UHGV virus genome: UHGV-0221207
Source of the DNA: a virus
Reading direction: 5' to 3' (one strand)
Length of the DNA: 12,366 bases
Shown: in pieces, positions 498-8,026 of the stretch
How positions within the stretch are numbered: the first letter of the stretch is position 1
Layout: each line of letters begins with the position of its first letter
Position numbers and translations under genes: made by a program
Notes under the pieces: model-generated
What the model saw: the letters and a program-made list of their open reading frames with translations, nothing else
Databases searched by the model: none
What the model was told of the DNA's origin: nothing

Positions 498-891
498 AGC
501 AGTGCCTTATGTCCGCAATAACCCGGATAAGCTGCATCTGTTTGTGGATAACGGTTCGCTGGTTGCCACGGGGGCCAGCTCCATGTCATGGGAGTACCGT
601 TATACCCTCAACGTGGTGATTGAGGATTTCAGCGGCGACCAGAATCTGCTGATGGCCCCGGTTTTGCTGTGGCTGCGTGATAACCAGCCCGATGCCATCA
701 ATAATCCGGCGTTACGGGAAAAGTTATTCACCTTTGAGGTGGATATTCTGCGCAACGATGTCTGTGATATCAGCCTCAACCTGCAACTGACGGAACGTGT
801 GCTGGTCAGCACTGACGGAAGTGTGTCGAGCGTTGAAGCAGTAGCGGAACCCGATGAACCTGAAGAAATGTGGACGGTGAAACGTGGCTGA
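460..891 (+). CDS. R: Tail completion protein R
   Basis: The track ORF begins at TTG 439, but an in-frame GTG at 460 sits 8 nt after AGGAG (447-451) and gives MNKPQSLRHAL..., which parallels the P2 gpR N-terminus as recalled. Conserved-looking stretches FVDNGS, YTLNV, PVLLWLRDNQPD. TGA at 889-891 overlaps the S start (GTGGCTGA). Confidence 0.8.
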   Translation: MNKPQSLRHALNKAVPYVRNNPDKLHLFVDNGSLVATGASSMSWEYRYTLNVVIEDFSGDQNLLMAPVLLWLRDNQPDAINNPALREKLFTFEVDILRNDVCDISLNLQLTERVLVSTDGSVSSVEAVAEPDEPEEMWTVKRG

Positions 892-1336
892 ACTGCAGAA
901 GGTGGACGACTGGCTGAGTGCTTTGCTGGCGAATCTGGAACCAGCCGCAAGAAGCCGAATGATGCGCCAGCTGGCGCAGGAACTGCGCCGGACACAGCAG
1001 CAGAATATCAGGATGCAGCGCAATCCAGATGGCAGCAGTTATGAGCCGCGCAGGGTAACAGCACGCAGCAAGAAGGGGCGCATCAAACGTCAGATGTTTG
1101 CAAAGCTGCGCACCACAAAATACCTGAGAACTGCCGCCAGCGCGGATTCTGCCAGCGTACAGTTTGAAGGTAAGGTACAGCGTATTGCCCGTGTTCATCA
1201 CTACGGTCTGCGCGATCGCGTCAGTCCAAAGGGGGGAGTCATTAAGTATCCATCCCGAAAATTGCTGGGTTTAAATGAACATACTGAAAATGAAGTAAGA
1301 GATTTACTTTTAAAGTATTTATTGATGAAAAATTAG
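884..1336 (+). CDS. S: Tail completion protein S
   Basis: 150-aa ORF with GTG start overlapping the R stop, the same length as P2 gpS, in the position after R. The last ~30 codons lie in AT-rich DNA (see findings). Confidence 0.75.
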   Translation: MAELQKVDDWLSALLANLEPAARSRMMRQLAQELRRTQQQNIRMQRNPDGSSYEPRRVTARSKKGRIKRQMFAKLRTTKYLRTAASADSASVQFEGKVQRIARVHHYGLRDRVSPKGGVIKYPSRKLLGLNEHTENEVRDLLLKYLLMKN

Positions 1337-1341
1337 AATGT

Positions 1342-1872
1342 TTACGCTCTTAATAAACTTAAATAACTTTTTATGCTTTGGCAAAAAGGGAAAAGGTCTA
1401 TTTTAATTTTCCAGTTTTTTTTGTTTTGAACCCCAGAAGCAATAATAGAACCGTCCCAATATTTTATTCCATTTTTGCCGGTCTTTTTTGTTAACTCAAA
1501 ACTTAATGCGTGAATAATTTTATTGCAGCATTCGCGTATAGAATCTTTAACATGACCATCTATAACAAAAAGTATATTTTCATGTTCTTCAAATGCTTCT
1601 TTCTCAGGTGAGTAATCTGGGTTCCACTCATGTTCACTAGTGTCTTGGAGAATTCGTAGTTTTGTACAAAGGCTAATAAGATTGTTGCTAATGGTATATT
1701 CCAACCATCCGTTGTACGATAACTCCTCCATTTCAAATTCAGTTACTATAGAACCATCATATACTTTCTGTGTGGAATATATACGCTGTAAATAAAATTC
1801 AGATGAACAGCATAATTGCTCAATTATTCTTGCGTGTTCTTCTATAGCGTAATAATCAATTGGATGGCTCAT
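1342..1872 (-). CDS. Hypothetical protein of unknown function, candidate accessory/defence moron (176 aa from internal ATG; ORF extends to 1911 giving 189 aa)
   Basis: Uninterrupted 570-nt ORF on the opposite strand to every flanking phage gene. The DNA is visibly AT-rich (about one-third GC by eye, against over half in neighbouring genes), so a chance ORF of this length is unlikely. The internal ATG (complement of 1870-1872) is preceded by AAAGG/GGTAAAAG 8-10 nt upstream. No signal peptide, transmembrane segment or catalytic motif that I can recognise. Confidence 0.7.
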   Translation of the reverse strand: MSHPIDYYAIEEHARIIEQLCCSSEFYLQRIYSTQKVYDGSIVTEFEMEELSYNGWLEYTISNNLISLCTKLRILQDTSEHEWNPDYSPEKEAFEEHENILFVIDGHVKDSIRECCNKIIHALSFELTKKTGKNGIKYWDGSIIASGVQNKKNWKIKIDLFPFCQSIKSYLSLLRA

Positions 1873-1903
1873 TCTTTTACCTTTCTTTGATTGGAATTGT
1901 ATT

Positions 1904-1921
1904 TGTGTCATTTACCACACA
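1904..1921 (+). promoter_or_regulatory. Possible Ogr-type late-promoter activator site (TGT-N12-ACA dyad) upstream of V
   Basis: TGT at 1904-1906 and ACA at 1919-1921 separated by exactly 12 nt, 47-64 nt upstream of the V ATG. P2 late promoters carry this dyad centred near -55. The spacing to the V start codon is tight, so this is tentative. Confidence 0.3.
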
Positions 1922-1967
1922 AGGACGTATTGATGCCATAGATTCAAGGTCCGTGCAACCTAACCCT

Positions 1968-2546
1968 ATGAACGCACAACTAACCGAAATCATGCGCCTT
2001 ATCACCAACCTGATCCGCACTGGTGTAGTCACCGAAGTGGACCGGGAAAACTGGCTTTGCCGGGTGAAAACGGGCGAGCTTGAAACCAACTGGATCAGCT
2101 GGCTGACGCTGCGTGCCGGGAATGCCCGCACATGGTGGCGACCATCGGAAGGTGAGCAGGTGGTGCTGCTGAGTCTGGGCGGCAATCTGGAAACTGCCTT
2201 TGCGCTGCCCGCTGTCTATTCGAATCAGTTCGCACCACCGTCGACGTCGGCAGACGCCTGCGTGACAGAACATCCTGACGGCGGCTGGTTTGAATACGAA
2301 CCCACTACCGGGCGCTGGTATGTCAGGGGCATCAAATCAATGGTCATTGAGGCCGCTGACAACATCACCATGAAAACCAGTGAGTTTGTACTGGAGGCTG
2401 ACCGCACGCGCATTAACAGCGAAGTGGTGATCAATGGTGGCGTTACCCAGGGCGGCGGAGCGATGAGTTCTAACGGGATCGTGGTTGATGCGCATCAGCA
2501 TACTGACGTCCTGAAAGGCGGCGACACAACCGGAGGCCCGGTATGA
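1968..2546 (+). CDS. V: Baseplate assembly/spike protein V
   Basis: MNAQLTEIMRLITNLIRTG... aligns with the P2 gpV N-terminus as recalled (…IRTG, WLTxRAG, TWWxPSxGEQV, GGxLxTAF, SSNG…H.H). The track ORF from TTG 1860 is an upstream extension into the AT-rich insertion and is not used. TGA at 2544-2546 overlaps the W start (ATGA). Confidence 0.85.
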   Translation: MNAQLTEIMRLITNLIRTGVVTEVDRENWLCRVKTGELETNWISWLTLRAGNARTWWRPSEGEQVVLLSLGGNLETAFALPAVYSNQFAPPSTSADACVTEHPDGGWFEYEPTTGRWYVRGIKSMVIEAADNITMKTSEFVLEADRTRINSEVVINGGVTQGGGAMSSNGIVVDAHQHTDVLKGGDTTGGPV

Positions 2547-3797: not shown

Positions 3798-4395
3798 TCT
3801 GCTGCCACCGGGTTCAACTTCACTGGAGCGCCGACTGGCGCAAACCTGTAGCGGGATTTCTGATCTGCAGGTGCCGCTGCGTGACTTGTGGAATCCGGCT
3901 ACCTGTCCGGTCAGCTTCCTGCCTTATCTCGCCTGGGCGTTCTCTGTGGATCGCTGGGACGAGGGCTGGACAGAAAGCGTCAAACGCCAGGTAGTGAAGG
4001 ATGCTTTTTATATTCATCAGCATAAAGGAACTACCAGTGCCGTGCGGCGGGTGGTGGAACCGTTCGGATTCCTGATCCGCATTATTGAGTGGTGGCAGAC
4101 CGGAGAAACACCGGGCACGTTTCGCCTGGATATCGGCGTGCAGGACCAGGGCATCACTGAAGATACCTATCTGGAACTTGAGCGGCTGATAAGCGATGCC
4201 AAACCATGTAGCCGTCACATGATCGGCATGTCCATCAATCTGCAGACCAGCGGTCCGCATTGGGTGGGGGCCGCCAGCTATCTTGGCGAAGAAATCACGA
4301 TCTATCCGTATATCAACGAAACAATTATTTCCGGCGGCACCGCGCATGAAGGCGGGGCGGTCCATGTTATTGACACAATGAGAGTGAATCCATGA
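3790..4395 (+). CDS. I: Baseplate protein I (tail-fibre attachment)
   Basis: Motifs LWNPATCPVSFLPYLAWAFSVDRWDEGW, RRVVEPFGFL and GTFRLDIGV parallel P2 gpI as recalled. ATG overlaps the J stop, and TGA at 4393-4395 overlaps the H start. Confidence 0.8.
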   Translation: MNSLLPPGSTSLERRLAQTCSGISDLQVPLRDLWNPATCPVSFLPYLAWAFSVDRWDEGWTESVKRQVVKDAFYIHQHKGTTSAVRRVVEPFGFLIRIIEWWQTGETPGTFRLDIGVQDQGITEDTYLELERLISDAKPCSRHMIGMSINLQTSGPHWVGAASYLGEEITIYPYINETIISGGTAHEGGAVHVIDTMRVNP

Positions 4396-5798
4396 GCACA
4401 AAATTTTATACCCTGCTGACGGATATTGGCGCGGCGAAACTTGCCAGCGCCGCCGCGCTCGGTGTGCCGCTAAAAATTACCCATATGGCGGTGGGCGATG
4501 GCGGCGGAACATTGCCAACGCCGGACGCCAAGCAGACAGCATTGGTAAATGAGAAACGCCGGGCTGCGCTGAATATGCTCTATATCGACCCGCAGAACAG
4601 CAGCCAGATTATTGCTGAACAGGTGATCCCTGAAAACGAGGGCGGTTGGTGGATACGTGAAGTGGGCCTGTTTGATGAGTCCGGGGCATTGATTGCCGTG
4701 GGCAACTGCCCGGAAAGCTATAAGCCGCAACTGGCTGAAGGCAGCGGGCGTACCCAGACCGTGCGCATGGTGCTGATTACCAGCAGCACGGACAATATCA
4801 CCCTGAAAATCGACCCTGCCGTAGTGCTGGCAACCCGCAAGTATGTGGATGACAAGGTACTGGAGCTGAAGGTGTACGTGGATGATCAGATGGCAAAACA
4901 TCTTGCCGCACCGGACCCGCATTCACAGTATGCACCCAAAGAAAGTCCGACGTTTACCGGGACACCAAAAGCGCCAACTCCAGCGGCAGGGAATAACACC
5001 ACGCAGGTTGCGACCACCGCGTTTGTTCAGGCGGCACTGACGGCTCTTATTAATGGTGCGCCAGCCACGCTGGACACGCTGAAAGAAATAGCCGCAGCCA
5101 TTAACAATGATCCGAATTTCAGTACCACCATTAACAATGCGCTGGCACTGAAAGCGCCGTTGTCGAGTCCGGCACTCACCGGAACGCCAACAGCCCCCAC
5201 TGCTGCACAGTCGGTCAACAATACACAGATTGCCACCACGGCTTTTGTGAAATCGGCGATTGCAGCAATGGTAGGTTCTGCACCTGCGGCACTGGATACA
5301 CTGAACGAACTGGCGTCGGCGTTGGGGAATGATCCGAACTTTGCCACGACAATGCTTAATGCGCTGGCAGGTAAACAACCGCTGGACAATACGCTGACTA
5401 ATTTGAGTGGAAAGGATGTCGCTGGTCTTCTCGCATACCTTGGTTTGGGAGAAGCGGCGAAAAGGGATGTGGGCACAGGAGATAATCAGATACCGGATAT
5501 GGGAGCATTCGCTTCTGGTTCGGGATGGTTCAGGCTACCAGGTGGATATATTGTTCAGTTTGGCACTTTTTCAGGAAACACGACCCGCTTTATCAGTGGA
5601 CACTTCCCTATACCATTCCCTAATCAGCCGATGGTTTCAGTCAGTGTTATGTCTGATGCCGTTCAGTCAGACCCGTCGAATCCTGCCACGCAGGTTTTGT
5701 CTGTAAATTTTGAACATATCAGTAATTCAGCGTGGCGTGTGGCAACCAGTGATATCTCACAGCAATACAGATTCAGTTATATTTCGATAGGACGGTAG
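4392..5798 (+). CDS. H: Tail fibre protein H, current orientation (constant N-terminal ~350 aa plus variable C-terminal receptor-binding end)
   Basis: N-terminus MSTKFYTLLTDIGAAKLASAAALGVPLKITHMAVGDGGG... is the conserved P2-H/Mu-S type fibre N-domain. A tandem shaft repeat follows. The reading frame crosses the inversion crossover site at the GLGE codons (about 5440). TAG at 5796-5798. Confidence 0.85.
   Translation: MSTKFYTLLTDIGAAKLASAAALGVPLKITHMAVGDGGGTLPTPDAKQTALVNEKRRAALNMLYIDPQNSSQIIAEQVIPENEGGWWIREVGLFDESGALIAVGNCPESYKPQLAEGSGRTQTVRMVLITSSTDNITLKIDPAVVLATRKYVDDKVLELKVYVDDQMAKHLAAPDPHSQYAPKESPTFTGTPKAPTPAAGNNTTQVATTAFVQAALTALINGAPATLDTLKEIAAAINNDPNFSTTINNALALKAPLSSPALTGTPTAPTAAQSVNNTQIATTAFVKSAIAAMVGSAPAALDTLNELASALGNDPNFATTMLNALAGKQPLDNTLTNLSGKDVAGLLAYLGLGEAAKRDVGTGDNQIPDMGAFASGSGWFRLPGGYIVQFGTFSGNTTRFISGHFPIPFPNQPMVSVSVMSDAVQSDPSNPATQVLSVNFEHISNSAWRVATSDISQQYRFSYISIGR
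4944..5387 (+). repeat. Tandem in-frame repeat (2 x ~222 bp, ~74 aa units) in the fibre shaft
   Basis: Unit 1 SPTFTGTPKAPTPAAGNNTTQVATTAFVQAAL...NDPNFSTTINNALALKAP and unit 2 SPALTGTPTAPTAAQSVNNTQIATTAFVKSAI...NDPNFATTMLNALAGKQP align colinearly with many identities. Confidence 0.7.
5428..5453. repeat. Left inversion crossover site (gix/hix-like 26-bp imperfect palindrome)
   Basis: TTCTCGCATACC-TT-GGTTTGGGAGAA. The half-sites resemble the Gin/Hin consensus (TTATCnAAAACC / GGTTTnnGGATAA). The right half is identical to the inverted partner at 7313-7338. Confidence 0.75.
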
Positions 5799-5800
5799 AA

Positions 5801-6241
5801 ATGCAGAAATATATTTTCAGTGCCGATAAAAATGCGTTTTTCCCTGTGGAGCTTAAAATCGCTTATCAGGAATCCGGCGAATGGCCCGATGATGGAATCG
5901 AAATTGACGACACTGTTGCCGCCGAATTTATGAAGGAAGCACCAGAAGGAAAATACAGAGGTGTCATCGACGGAATGCCTGCATGGATTGATATTCCACC
6001 GCCAACTCATGAGGAACAAATTGCCGCAGCCGAATTGGAAAAGCAGCAATTGATTAATCAGGTCAACGAATACATAAACAGTAAGCAATGGCCTGGTAAA
6101 GCGGCGATTGGTCGTCTGAAAGGTGAGGAACTGGCGCAATATAATTTATGGCTAGATTATCTGGACGCACTGGAACTGGTTGATTCCTCCAGTGCTCCAG
6201 ATATTGAATGGCCTACGCCTCCGGCAGTTCAGGCCAGATGA
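5801..6241 (+). CDS. G: Tail fibre assembly chaperone (Tfa) G
   Basis: 146-aa ORF starting 3 nt after the H stop. C-terminal tail ...LDYLDALELVDSSSAPDIEWPTPP is Tfa-like. Position matches P2 G. Confidence 0.8.
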   Translation: MQKYIFSADKNAFFPVELKIAYQESGEWPDDGIEIDDTVAAEFMKEAPEGKYRGVIDGMPAWIDIPPPTHEEQIAAAELEKQQLINQVNEYINSKQWPGKAAIGRLKGEELAQYNLWLDYLDALELVDSSSAPDIEWPTPPAVQAR

Positions 6242-6815
6242 CATCCGGTGCGGTGCTGGTATCTGTTGCCGTCACCGCGTCAATGTAATCCAGCACGGCG
6301 TTAAGTCGGGTGTTTTCTGGCTGCGTCAGCTTCCGCCCGGCCCGTAATTTCAGTTGAATCAGACTGATGGAAGCCATTGCAGCATCAATCAGCGACTGGC
6401 GCTGTGCTTCTGCCGCGTCTACTGCGGCACTATGCTGTGCCTCAGTATCTGTCACCCATTTCTCACCATTCCATTCATCGTATGGCGTTAACGGGGCGAT
6501 AGTGGTTGTATTTTCAGGATAATCACCCGGAGCTGTGATTTCTTTCGATTCTCCTGTTTCGGTGCTATAGACGATTTCACCGCGATGGTCTGGCACATAT
6601 TCCCATGAATTTAAATCTACAGAGCGACAGATTGCATAACCAGCTTTATGTGTACCTGGTGCATCCAAACAAGAACATGCCGGAATACCGACGCCGACAG
6701 CGAGATATTCAGTTGATGTAGAAATATATTCACGCGTTTCACCATCATAGTTATAAACAGTAATATTTCCTGCCTGGGTGGCGATAAACTCGTTATTTAA
6801 TACGGCGTAATCCAT
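6213..6815 (-). CDS. Alternative tail fibre assembly chaperone (Tfa'), silent in this orientation
   Basis: 200-aa ORF. Its C-terminus ...LDYIDAVTATDTSTAPDVIWPELPEA parallels that of G. Its start overlaps the stop of the alternative fibre end (TAATG). It converges on G with a 29-bp overlap. Confidence 0.75.
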   Translation of the reverse strand: MDYAVLNNEFIATQAGNITVYNYDGETREYISTSTEYLAVGVGIPACSCLDAPGTHKAGYAICRSVDLNSWEYVPDHRGEIVYSTETGESKEITAPGDYPENTTTIAPLTPYDEWNGEKWVTDTEAQHSAAVDAAEAQRQSLIDAAMASISLIQLKLRAGRKLTQPENTRLNAVLDYIDAVTATDTSTAPDVIWPELPEA

Positions 6816-7366
6816 TATGCAGCCCTCACGATATACGCAAATGCCAGGTTCCGTGGTCTGGTTTCTTTAATTAAAGAGGAGGCATCAGGTGAACTCACTG
6901 ATTCAGCACCATTTCTTCCACCAGTTGTATAAGTAAAAACTCTTTCACTGTTAGACCAGTAATCCACACCAACTGTTTTTGCTGATGAAAAAATGGTTTC
7001 ATCAGATATAACCTGTTCTATTCCATACGGGATATTAGTAACTGACCCCACTTTTGTAGGTATTCCATGATTATGAGAAATTACTGCATGCTCTTGATTC
7101 GTTAATAAAGTACGACCGCTATCCACTCCACGCCCGTCATCCCAGCCACGAATAAATTCACCGCGTAAATCAGGCAATTTATTTGTCGGATAAACCTTTG
7201 CCAGTTCCGGGTATTCTTCAGCAGAAAAAGCCGCACCGTTGCATTTCAGCCAGCCAGTAGGCGGTGTGGCTGAAGGCCACGGAACAGGCACACCAACGGG
7301 TAATGCCGAACCTTCTCCCAAACCAACATTTATGAAAATGCAGAGATAACGGCTAACTGGCATCAT
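6815..7366 (-). CDS. Alternative tail-fibre C-terminal cassette (H'), promoterless; joins the H N-terminus only after inversion
   Basis: The frame reads ...INVGLGEGSALPVGVPVPWPSATPPTGWLKCNGAAFSAEEYPELAKVYP... and ends ...NLAFAYIVRAA, resembling the C-terminal end of P2 H / Mu S type fibres. The GLGE codons coincide with the crossover site. The first ~13 codons (7327-7366) lie outside the segment and are probably not a genuine N-terminus. Confidence 0.7.
   Translation of the reverse strand: MMPVSRYLCIFINVGLGEGSALPVGVPVPWPSATPPTGWLKCNGAAFSAEEYPELAKVYPTNKLPDLRGEFIRGWDDGRGVDSGRTLLTNQEHAVISHNHGIPTKVGSVTNIPYGIEQVISDETIFSSAKTVGVDYWSNSERVFTYTTGGRNGAESVSSPDASSLIKETRPRNLAFAYIVRAA
7313..7338. repeat. 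Right inversion crossover site (inverted partner of 5428-5453)
   Basis: Top strand TTCTCCCAAACC-AA-CATTTATGAAAA. Its reverse complement TTTTCATAAATG-TT-GGTTTGGGAGAA shares 15 contiguous nt (TTGGTTTGGGAGAAG) with the left site in inverted orientation. Confidence 0.75.
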
Positions 7367-7387
7367 CTCCGGTTTTTATTCAGGGGG

Positions 7388-7960
7388 ATGATCATGCTTA
7401 TTGGCTATGTACGCGTGTCAACAAATGACCAGAACACCGATTTGCAACGTAATGCACTGAACTGCGCGGGATGTGAGCGGATTTTTGAGGATAAAATCAG
7501 TGGCACTAAGTCCGACAGACCGGGGCTGAAAAAGCTGCTCAGGACACTATCGGCAGGAGACACGCTGGTTGTCTGGAAGCTGGACAGGTTGGGGCGCAGT
7601 ATGCGGCATCTTGTTACGCTGATAGAGGAGTTGCGCCAGCGTGGTGTGAATTTCCGAAGCCTGACTGACAGTATTGATACCAGTACCCCAATGGGCCGTT
7701 TCTTTTTTCATGTCATGGGTGCCCTGGCTGAAATGGAACGCGAACTGATAGTTGAACGTACCAGGGCAGGGCTGGCTGCAGCTCGTGCCAAAGGCAGAGT
7801 AGGTGGACGCCGTCCTAAGTTGACCACCGAACAGTGGGCACAGATTGGGCGTTTACTCGAGGCCGGAGAATCAAGACAGCGTATTGCACTGATTTTTGAT
7901 GTGGGTGTTTCCACAATTTATAGAAAATTTCCGGCAAATAAGAGTAATGAATCCCCCTGA
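7388..7960 (+). CDS. Serine DNA invertase (Gin/Hin/Cin/Pin family)
   Basis: MLIGYVRVSTNDQNTDLQRNAL...VVWKLDRLGRSM...FRSLTDSIDTSTPMGRFFFHVMGALAEMERELI...GRRPKL... is near-identical in motif content to Gin/Hin as recalled, including the catalytic Ser in RVSTNDQ and a C-terminal helix-turn-helix. The start is probably the second ATG at 7394. The gene begins ~50 bp beyond the right crossover site. Confidence 0.9.
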   Translation: MIMLIGYVRVSTNDQNTDLQRNALNCAGCERIFEDKISGTKSDRPGLKKLLRTLSAGDTLVVWKLDRLGRSMRHLVTLIEELRQRGVNFRSLTDSIDTSTPMGRFFFHVMGALAEMERELIVERTRAGLAAARAKGRVGGRRPKLTTEQWAQIGRLLEAGESRQRIALIFDVGVSTIYRKFPANKSNESP

Positions 7961-8008: not shown

Positions 8009-8026
8009 TGTGTGAATAACGGTACA
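8009..8026 (+). promoter_or_regulatory. Probable P2-type late promoter activator site (TGT-N12-ACA) for the FI operon
   Basis: TGT 8009-8011, 12-nt spacer, ACA 8024-8026, centred ~85 nt upstream of the FI ATG. A CACAAT -10-like hexamer lies about 25 nt downstream and AGGAGG at 8088-8093. Confidence 0.4.

Follow-up and report, generated by a model that had tools for sequence, protein, structure and literature searches.

An AT-rich cassette at the S-V junction of a P2-like prophage carries a candidate single-gene defence system, possibly a non-canonical HEPN protein

The junction between the tail genes S and V of a P2-like Escherichia coli prophage holds an AT-rich accessory cassette, recombined into the slot known as P2 "orf30", whose only gene is a candidate single-gene prophage defence system, possibly of a non-canonical HEPN type. 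The DNA analysed, hereafter the window, is the 12,366-nt virus genome UHGV-0221207, and the gene in question, hereafter the cargo gene, encodes a 176-aa protein on the strand opposite to its neighbours. Over its first 3 kb, the window matches Escherichia phage Cartapus (NC_070909, Peduoviridae), P2-like prophage 4 of adherent-invasive E. coli LF82, at 99.9% identity. The tail-fibre region differs by about 350 nt from the deposited Cartapus record, the window being longer there. The window therefore represents the Cartapus prophage or a very close relative. Its genes run in the order R (439-891), S, the opposite-strand open reading frame (ORF), V, and then W, J, I and H (Table 1).

The GC content is 0.326 over 1228-1955 and 0.324 over 1240-1967, against 0.536 in the rest of the window. 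Other 728-nt segments average 0.531 (standard deviation 0.038, minimum 0.416), placing the island about 5 standard deviations low. An earlier note on this DNA, made from the letters alone, had reported a drop in GC between about 1240 and 1960; the AT-rich block is indeed there, and its left edge lies at about 1228, inside S. The boundaries were set against phage 500465-1, an empty-site reference with 68 bp between S and V. Nucleotide homology to this phage is lost at about 1227 within S and picks up again at about 1956, 12 nt ahead of the V ATG. Because homology is lost inside S, the last ~36 codons of that gene belong to the foreign block. This foreign tail still codes for an S-like C-terminus, in AT-rich codons (GC 0.30 compared with 0.57 for S codons 1-114), and its variant IKYPxRxLLGxN is common to the Salmonella and Enterobacter carriers of the cargo gene. 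An Rfam scan of the island was empty, a consensus scan found no terminator in it, and the window contains no integron attC-like repeat.

The right ~65 bp of the block are the PV late promoter rather than DNA specific to the cargo. A TGT-N12-ACA dyad, the consensus of four Ogr-dependent P2 late promoters (PMC3931495), precedes the V ATG by 45-47 nt in 12 of 12 cassette variants, empty sites and seven other cargo types included, and the sequences flanking it are unrelated among these variants. Every cassette carries its own PV promoter, and most carry their own S tail. The PO promoter drives ONMLKRS and PV drives VWJIHG (PMC3931495). Since S ends the first operon and V starts the second, the slot is a junction of two operons; the earlier note was mistaken in placing the island inside a single, tightly packed one. 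Comparison of S C-termini (window 1228-1336 and the S ends in loci L016, L035, L057, L072, L077 and L084) showed that most cargo types bring different last 15-36 S residues, in which the pattern LLG.N...D.L..L is preserved. The carrier of the PDC-S59 cargo, described below, retains the empty-site S tail.

The state of the slot varies among close relatives. We surveyed 80 IMG/VR loci in which the V protein (gpV) is at least 96% identical, and S and V were both visible in 77. The slot was empty in 57 of these, held the 176-aa cargo gene in 7 and held another cargo in 13. The alignment of S-V junctions that the earlier note had proposed thus upholds its view of the block as foreign, being present or absent among phages with such similar gpV. 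The block lies between S and V, differs in composition from the backbone and is variably present in close relatives, as expected of cargo in the P2 "orf30" slot. Among 5,426 complete E. coli genomes, the V gene was found in 1030 and the cargo gene in 22, always adjoining S and with a nucleotide identity of at least 99.2%.

Seven other cargo types occupy the remaining 13 loci, with a GC content of 0.33-0.38 and on the opposite strand in all but one. They comprise a TIR_2 protein, an ApeA-like HEPN protein in two ORFs, PDC-S59 (PADLOC E = 1.9e-197), a 268-aa DUF6216 membrane protein (L016:642-1448, minus strand), two predicted membrane proteins of 314 aa (L084:3009-3953, minus) and 146 aa (L035:3475-3915, minus), and a 393-aa protein that ends in a canonical-looking HEPN motif, RDKIAH (L057:2764-3945, minus). 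The last four types are without a PADLOC match and are regarded as candidate genes. In the ApeA-like cargo (L077:2168-3920, minus), the two ORFs of 195 and 372 aa correspond to the N-terminal and the C-terminal portion of the PADLOC ApeA model; the gene may have been broken by a frameshift or become a pseudogene, or this may be a true two-gene variant. The P2 orf30 position has been described as one of three regions of P2-like phages with horizontally acquired genes, and a 741-bp ORF of phage R18C occupies the S-V position (PMC3091744, PMC6823313); defence genes have been reported among P2 tail genes (PMC13586616). Both the literature and the variety of cargos, several of them known or candidate defence genes, support the recurrent cargo slot that the earlier note had suggested with reference to orf30.

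The island contains a single opposite-strand ORF, as first read, which extends over 1342-1911 (189 aa) or 1342-1872 (176 aa). We take the ATG at 1872 as the true start, because all homologues begin with M-S/P-H-P-I and the Salmonella copy has a TTG start at the same codon, preceded by an unrelated upstream leader. The 189-aa start was rejected, as the N-terminus is conserved from MSHPI onwards. The Shine-Dalgarno-like motif noticed before the internal ATG is AAAGG, 7 nt ahead of it, and both RefSeq and the deposited Cartapus phage records annotate 176 aa. The gene table of the LF82 RNA-seq study gives LF82_787/CARTA_14 the coordinates of the 189-aa ORF, unlike RefSeq. A stop-free run of 176 codons did not arise in any of 5000 Markov simulations of the island (the longest had 172 codons). 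Between Cartapus and the Salmonella copy in the same slot (74% amino acid identity), the ratio of nonsynonymous to synonymous substitution rates (dN/dS) is 0.094 for the cargo gene, 0.064 for S and 0.138 for V. The cargo gene is under purifying selection, and the simulations together with dN/dS led us to reject a chance ORF.

An exhaustive HMMER search gave 93 representative clusters, typically of about 175-210 aa. The two longest "homologues", P0098 and P0103, are helicase-associated repeat proteins and were discarded as false positives rather than domain fusions. The family alignment comprises 77 members with a mean column identity of 22%. R113, N117, K118 and H121 are invariant; R73 (99%), G141, G147 and W154 are conserved in more than 90% of members, and E114, D77 (87%), C116 (83%) and H3 in more than 80%. 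The paired cysteines that the earlier note had pointed out are not a family feature, C116 alone being conserved, and as C21, C22 and C115 vary within the family, a metal site formed by cysteine pairs was rejected.

Transcription of the cargo gene in the lysogen was assessed with published LF82 RNA-seq data (S1 Table of PMC9928086), given as log2(fpkm+5), where fpkm denotes fragments per kilobase per million mapped reads. The values were 3.5/2.7 in lysogeny broth (LB) stationary phase, 5.1/5.2 in sample B1, 5.9/6.0 in B6, 5.1/5.3 in macrophages at 1 h (MB1) and 4.6/4.4 at 6 h (MB6). The values for S and V were 2.3-3.6, except for V at 6 h in macrophages (4.3/4.05), and they stayed at 2.3-3.3 in the B6, B1 and MB1 samples. 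In B6 this corresponds to ~56 fpkm for the cargo transcript versus ~2-5 for S and V. In B6, B1 and MB1 the cargo transcript exceeds S and V, which points to promoter activity of its own in the lysogen and agrees with the proposed expression independent of the late genes. The cargo ATG is only 32 nt from the TGT-N12-ACA dyad, a distance so short that a promoter of the cargo gene has to overlap the Ogr site. LF82_789, one of two published Cartapus morons, was considered as the cargo gene and rejected, being a different gene elsewhere in the prophage.

The flanks of the cargo gene leave no room for a partner gene, since only 5 nt separate its stop from the S stop and 95 nt its start from the V ATG. 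An adjacent co-transcribed antitoxin, as in type II toxin-antitoxin systems, is absent from both flanks. This bears on the proposal that the gene is an orphan toxin or a selfish addiction module with no adaptive role in defence, maintained because the cell is harmed when it is lost or activated. Neither an antitoxin-sized ORF nor an Rfam RNA is found in the cassette, the single-gene integron cassettes that carry homologues likewise have no antitoxin-sized ORF, and carriage is stable in the 22 complete E. coli genomes. We consider this proposal very improbable.

Homologues of the cargo protein were found in two kinds of context. The closer ones (60-74% identity), in Salmonella and Enterobacter, occupy the same S-V slot. 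The distant ones (33-44% identity) occur in Aliivibrio, Vibrio, Pseudoalteromonas, a Chloroflexia metagenome-assembled genome (MAG) and a Dokdonia MAG, and their GC content of ~0.34-0.38 fits that of the island. Some of the distant homologues are integron gene cassettes, that is, single ORFs set between attC-like repeats in an array, an arrangement that the window does not have. In Aliivibrio (L092), the ORF at 6001-6546 lies between attC-like repeats at 5853-5984 and 6547-6678, with 10 copies of the repeat in the locus; in Vibrio hepatarius (L093), such repeats stand on either side of a single-ORF cassette, and on a V. anguillarum plasmid (L098) one lies directly upstream of the homologue. 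The repeats flanking the Aliivibrio and V. hepatarius homologues are ~120-130 nt long. The Aliivibrio sp. S4MY1 locus (L092:1-12537) is an integron array on the chromosome, in which attC-like repeats of ~130 nt occur at least 10 times. Among its cassettes are those for a Lit-like Peptidase_U49, the cargo-family member and a GNAT acetyltransferase, and some cassettes are duplicated (300-nt repeats). Integron cassettes are documented carriers of phage defence.

Defence genes adjoin several members of the family. One homologue is the cassette neighbouring a Lit-like peptidase (PADLOC Lit, E = 2.3e-23), and another adjoins an LmuB/GajA/PtuA-like ATPase. In two independent metagenome contigs (L090:257-1923 and L091), a 184-aa homologue starts 15 nt after a 365-aa TIR protein of the PDC-S35/CAP12 type, and the two may form an operon that pairs the family with a TIR effector. 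A DUF2326 protein is encoded ~6 kb from the homologue on the V. anguillarum plasmid.

The earlier note had presented the gene as undescribed. That no longer holds, because an identical protein, WP_000019234.1 from an ECOR genome, is listed as "Predicted novel defense gene" in Table S5 of the DefensePredictor study (DeWeirdt, Mahoney & Laub, Science 2026, PMC13092281), with a mean log-odds of 6.89 against a cut-off of 4. The text and tables searched from that study contain no structure, mechanism, slot analysis or family description for this protein, and the tables list no validated (DS) protein with a CNKIIH-type motif. A literature search returned no mention of WP_000019234 in the main text of papers. 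The idea of a defence role is thus already on record as a machine prediction. In the ECOR assembly GCF_003333645.1 (contig NZ_QOYR01000032.1), the cargo gene lies ~21 kb from the validated four-gene system DS-30 ("ABC3", with a DUF2326 protein), and one prophage region of this contig may hold two defence loci.

The other cargos of the slot, the homologues beside defence genes and the DefensePredictor score together suggest defence, and we consider an anti-phage function of the cargo gene, on balance, probable. The same data bear on two other roles. The gene might be a lysogenic-conversion ("moron") gene that serves host fitness in a manner unrelated to phages, for example in a response to stress or to the host environment. 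Relative to LB stationary phase, its transcript in LF82 rises roughly 4-9-fold in B1/B6 and MB1 and about 3-4-fold in macrophages at 6 h (MB6), and P2 hotspots also bear non-defence cargo such as cytolethal distending toxin. The family, however, occurs in marine Vibrionaceae, Pseudoalteromonas and the Chloroflexia and Dokdonia MAGs, and a role specific to mammalian hosts is unlikely for that reason; several neighbours are defence genes, and the machine-learning prediction is "defensive". A moron function is, in our assessment, distinctly unlikely.

Alternatively, the product might serve the phage itself, as an anti-defence protein or as a weapon against competing elements such as P4-like satellites during infection or induction. 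The gene is 32 nt from a late promoter, the cassette has been inherited with the structural genes at similar divergence (dN 0.15 versus 0.12), and some P2-like phages do have anti-defence genes (PMC13586616). Nevertheless, the gene is transcribed in the uninduced lysogen and lies opposite in strand to the late genes, no more than 28 of 1511 P2 elements had anti-defence systems (PMC13586616), and homologues are integron cassettes and chromosomal genes without surrounding phage. A function of this kind appears quite improbable.

The structure of the 176-aa protein was predicted with AlphaFold2 (AF2), giving a predicted local distance difference test score (pLDDT) of 90.3 and a predicted TM-score (pTM) of 0.86. 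The model consists of a kinked helix (residues 7-34), a second helix (45-78), an insert (79-111) that contains a short helix and a strand, a short helix (112-120), a three-stranded sheet (124-159) and a final helix (160-175). The invariant motif is carried on the short helix 112-120, directly followed by H121. The motif thus sits where helix 3 ends, in agreement with the published description of HEPN domains (PMC3710099). The core of four helices, the long insert that separates helices 2 and 3 and the conserved acidic residue on helix 2 may also correspond to that description, and a beta element follows the motif directly, as in Csx1. Helix 2 carries R73 and D77, that is, Rx3D rather than the Ex3[KR] of the HEPN description (PMC3710099). 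The family motif reads R-E-x-C-N-K-I-I-H, with an invariant core of R-x3-N-K-x2-H, and in N117-K-I-I-H121 the N-x3-H spacing of the canonical R-N-x3-H is kept invariantly. HEPN-like RNase chemistry is therefore a plausible, if still doubtful, reading of the model and the best mechanistic lead.

We tentatively favour, as a candidate reading, a single-gene abortive-infection-type defence with a divergent HEPN-like RNase core. The 176-aa protein would be a stand-alone cytoplasmic module made by the prophage during lysogeny, and its four-helix core would be the divergent RNase domain. The putative catalytic centre would consist of R113, N117, K118 and H121, where helix 3 ends, with R73 and D77 of helix 2 probably contributing. 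One may speculate that the three-stranded beta insert (residues 124-159) serves as a sensor or regulatory element and keeps the enzyme latent until an invading phage is detected. Because the cargo gene starts so close to the Ogr box and its promoter and PV would stand back-to-back, one may further speculate that Ogr binding during the late development of the prophage switches the cargo gene off. In its fullest form, this proposal describes a new family of stand-alone abortive-infection nucleases with a re-wired HEPN-like centre, in which the arginine has moved by one helical turn, and a built-in beta-sheet sensor, moving between Vibrionaceae integron arrays and the P2-like S-V junction and silenced by Ogr. 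We regard this complete version as rather unlikely.

A number of observations weigh against the favoured reading. The Rx4-6H motif that defines HEPN domains is absent, R113 and H121 being spaced as Rx7H in all 77 members, and the protein was for this reason not filed as a HEPN member. Position 116, the canonical arginine site before N117, is Cys in most of the family; it may be added that the HEPN family Parep1/8 has lost the motif arginine, for which other conserved basic residues may substitute (PMC3710099). Searches with hidden Markov models (HMMs) of Pfam, PADLOC and NCBIfam assigned neither the query nor the 77 members to HEPN or any other family: PADLOC returned 0 families at E <= 10 for the cargo protein, and the Pfam scan of the members gave scattered chance matches only. 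The absence of any structural-protein or defence HMM match is in line with the earlier note, which had seen no resemblance to virion proteins and no familiar defence signature, Rx4-6H included. PHROGs contained only the protein's own family of unknown function (PHROG 18838). Sequence and profile searches of the PDB found nothing beyond chance matches (collagen adhesin, fibrinogen, vesicle transport protein), and a profile search with the 77-sequence alignment against a set of 5.8 billion proteins added no annotated or multidomain relatives. Alignment by hhalign to the two slot cargos with a HEPN motif (the ApeA-like protein and the RDKIAH protein) gave a probability below 1%, and Foldseek of the model against the PDB and BFVD found nothing below E = 0.1. 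With regard to expression, the cargo transcript is near background in LB stationary phase (about 1.5-6 fpkm), which is why the LF82 authors, whose 5-fold criterion was applied to LB only, did not class the gene as a moron. The sigma70 -10 hexamer TACAAT proposed in the earlier note is present on the minus strand (1901-1896), but it is not conserved in the Salmonella cassette, and a consensus scan found no promoter on the cargo strand. Finally, several homologue contexts are without a defence neighbour, and WP_000019234.1 is absent from the 94 units cloned in the DefensePredictor study and from its 42 validated DS systems, the overall validation rate being 45% (PMC13092281).

These points leave room for an anti-phage or superinfection-exclusion gene that is not an RNase, and whose helical bundle and beta sheet bind and block a phage or host component, or sense infection and act through a host factor; the conserved R/N/K/H cluster would then bind a ligand or a protein. 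All the genomic context that points to defence is just as compatible with such a protein, and the unmatched HEPN spacing and the lack of profile-level HEPN homology speak for it. It would also have precedents in the P2 accessory genes old, tin and fun(Z), which exclude other phages and act by several unrelated mechanisms. We judge this alternative unlikely. The picture drawn in the earlier note of a foreign cassette in a recurrent slot, expressed independently and a candidate for defence, has held up, whereas its account of the operon structure, the cassette extent, the HEPN question and the unnoticed status of the gene needed revision.

The closest functional precedent for the HEPN-like reading is HepS ("HEPN Solo") of the Salmonella prophage Gifsy-1, a lone abortive-infection HEPN protein that senses a phage tail-tip protein and cleaves tRNA anticodons (PMC13043305). 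HepS is tolerated by its own prophage (PMC13043305); Cartapus likewise still produces virions while carrying the cargo gene, which is therefore compatible with its own phage. The two differ in that HepS has a canonical motif (R100-x4-H105, compared with R-x7-H in the cargo family), resides in a lambdoid accessory region rather than at a P2 late-gene junction, and has a demonstrated function, while that of the cargo protein is predicted only. PDB profile searches detected no sequence similarity between them. The MNT-HEPN toxins (PDB 7ae2, 5yep and 8xdj) share 4-10% sequence identity with the cargo protein. They contain a canonical Rx4H, need an adjacent MNT antitoxin, for which the cargo gene has no counterpart among its neighbours, and do not have the 35-residue beta insert found after the motif of the cargo protein. 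Vpc_cass2, a HEPN protein from a Vibrio integron cassette (PDB 3jrt), is 12% identical without a profile-level match, and its motif and inserts differ.

Compared with the other cargos of the S-V slot (P2 orf30, R18C ORF16, TIR, ApeA-like, PDC-S59 and DUF6216), the cargo gene shares the site, the AT-rich composition and, mostly, the opposite strand; all of them come with their own PV Ogr box and most with their own S tail. The encoded proteins are unrelated, and the 176-aa protein matches none of their families. The old, tin and fun(Z) genes of P2 were likewise acquired horizontally at fixed hotspots and are described as defence or phage-exclusion cargo, but these hotspots are different ones (the TO region for old and tin, the Z region for fun(Z)) and the proteins are unrelated to the cargo protein.

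If the cargo protein is protective, it represents a compact 176-aa single-protein defence family that has been overlooked by Pfam, PADLOC and NCBIfam. If the protection were in addition HEPN-like, the HEPN active site would tolerate a shifted arginine, and motif-based nuclease searches could be widened. The anatomy of the cassette is useful whatever the cargo does, as it makes the S-V junction a third, little-exploited cargo slot of P2-like phages. The edges of the slot are sharp and easily searched, with the conserved S core on one side and the Ogr box, fixed 46 nt before V, on the other. Since the small sample examined here gave a TIR protein, an ApeA-like protein, PDC-S59 and four unknown proteins, the slot could be mined in the same way as the old/tin and fun(Z) hotspots. 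The link to Vibrionaceae integrons suggests a route by which defence genes pass between integrons and temperate phages. The cargo gene also resides in LF82, a pathobiont already under study, with deletion tools and RNA-seq data available.

Table 1. Positions of the cassette, its parts and other annotated features in the window
Feature	Position	Strand	Basis or remark
Gene S, tail completion/virion morphogenesis, last gene of the PO late operon	884..1336	+	Pfam Phage_tail_S E = 4e-42; Cartapus and LF82 annotation; operon PMC3931495
Exchanged AT-rich cassette (S tail, cargo gene, PV promoter region)	1228..1955	.	GC; empty-site alignment; missing in most close relatives
Variable AT-rich S 3' tail, last ~36 codons, moves with cargo	1228..1336	+	Homology to 500465-1 ends at ~1227
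Cargo gene, 176 aa	1342..1872	-	RefSeq WP_000019234.1; Cartapus gp14; LF82_787/CARTA_14; PHROG 18838
Shine-Dalgarno-like AAAGG, 7 nt upstream of ATG 1872	1880..1884	-	Read from sequence
Candidate -10 TACAAT for the cargo gene, weak -35	1896..1901	-	Read from sequence
TGT-N12-ACA dyad, Ogr-activator box of the PV late promoter, 46 nt upstream of V ATG	1904..1921	+	12 cassette variants; consensus PMC3931495
Gene V, baseplate spike, first gene of the PV late operon	1968..2546	+	Annotation; empty-site homology resumes at ~1956
Tail fibre H	4392-5798		Part of invertible module
Tail-fibre assembly protein	5801-6241		Part of invertible module
Second assembly gene, inverted	6213-6815	-	Part of invertible module
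Fibre C-terminal fragment with Collar domain, inverted	6815-7366	-	Part of invertible module
Gin-like serine invertase	7388-7960		Part of invertible module

Outside the window, at the other end of the prophage (LF82 chromosome 2758544-2760452), the hypothetical genes CARTA_1, CARTA_47 and CARTA_46 climb steeply in macrophages according to the published RNA-seq data, where their log2(fpkm+5) values reach as much as 9.6, 10.5 and 7.7, respectively, a rise that far exceeds that of the 176-aa cargo gene. Within the window, positions 4392-7960 form an invertible tail-fibre module. Two further TGT-N12-ACA matches (9319 and 11314) fall within genes and are consistent with chance. Another such dyad, at 8009-8026, lies between the invertase gene and the sheath gene FI (ATG 8103), 76 nt upstream of the latter, and is a candidate PF late promoter.

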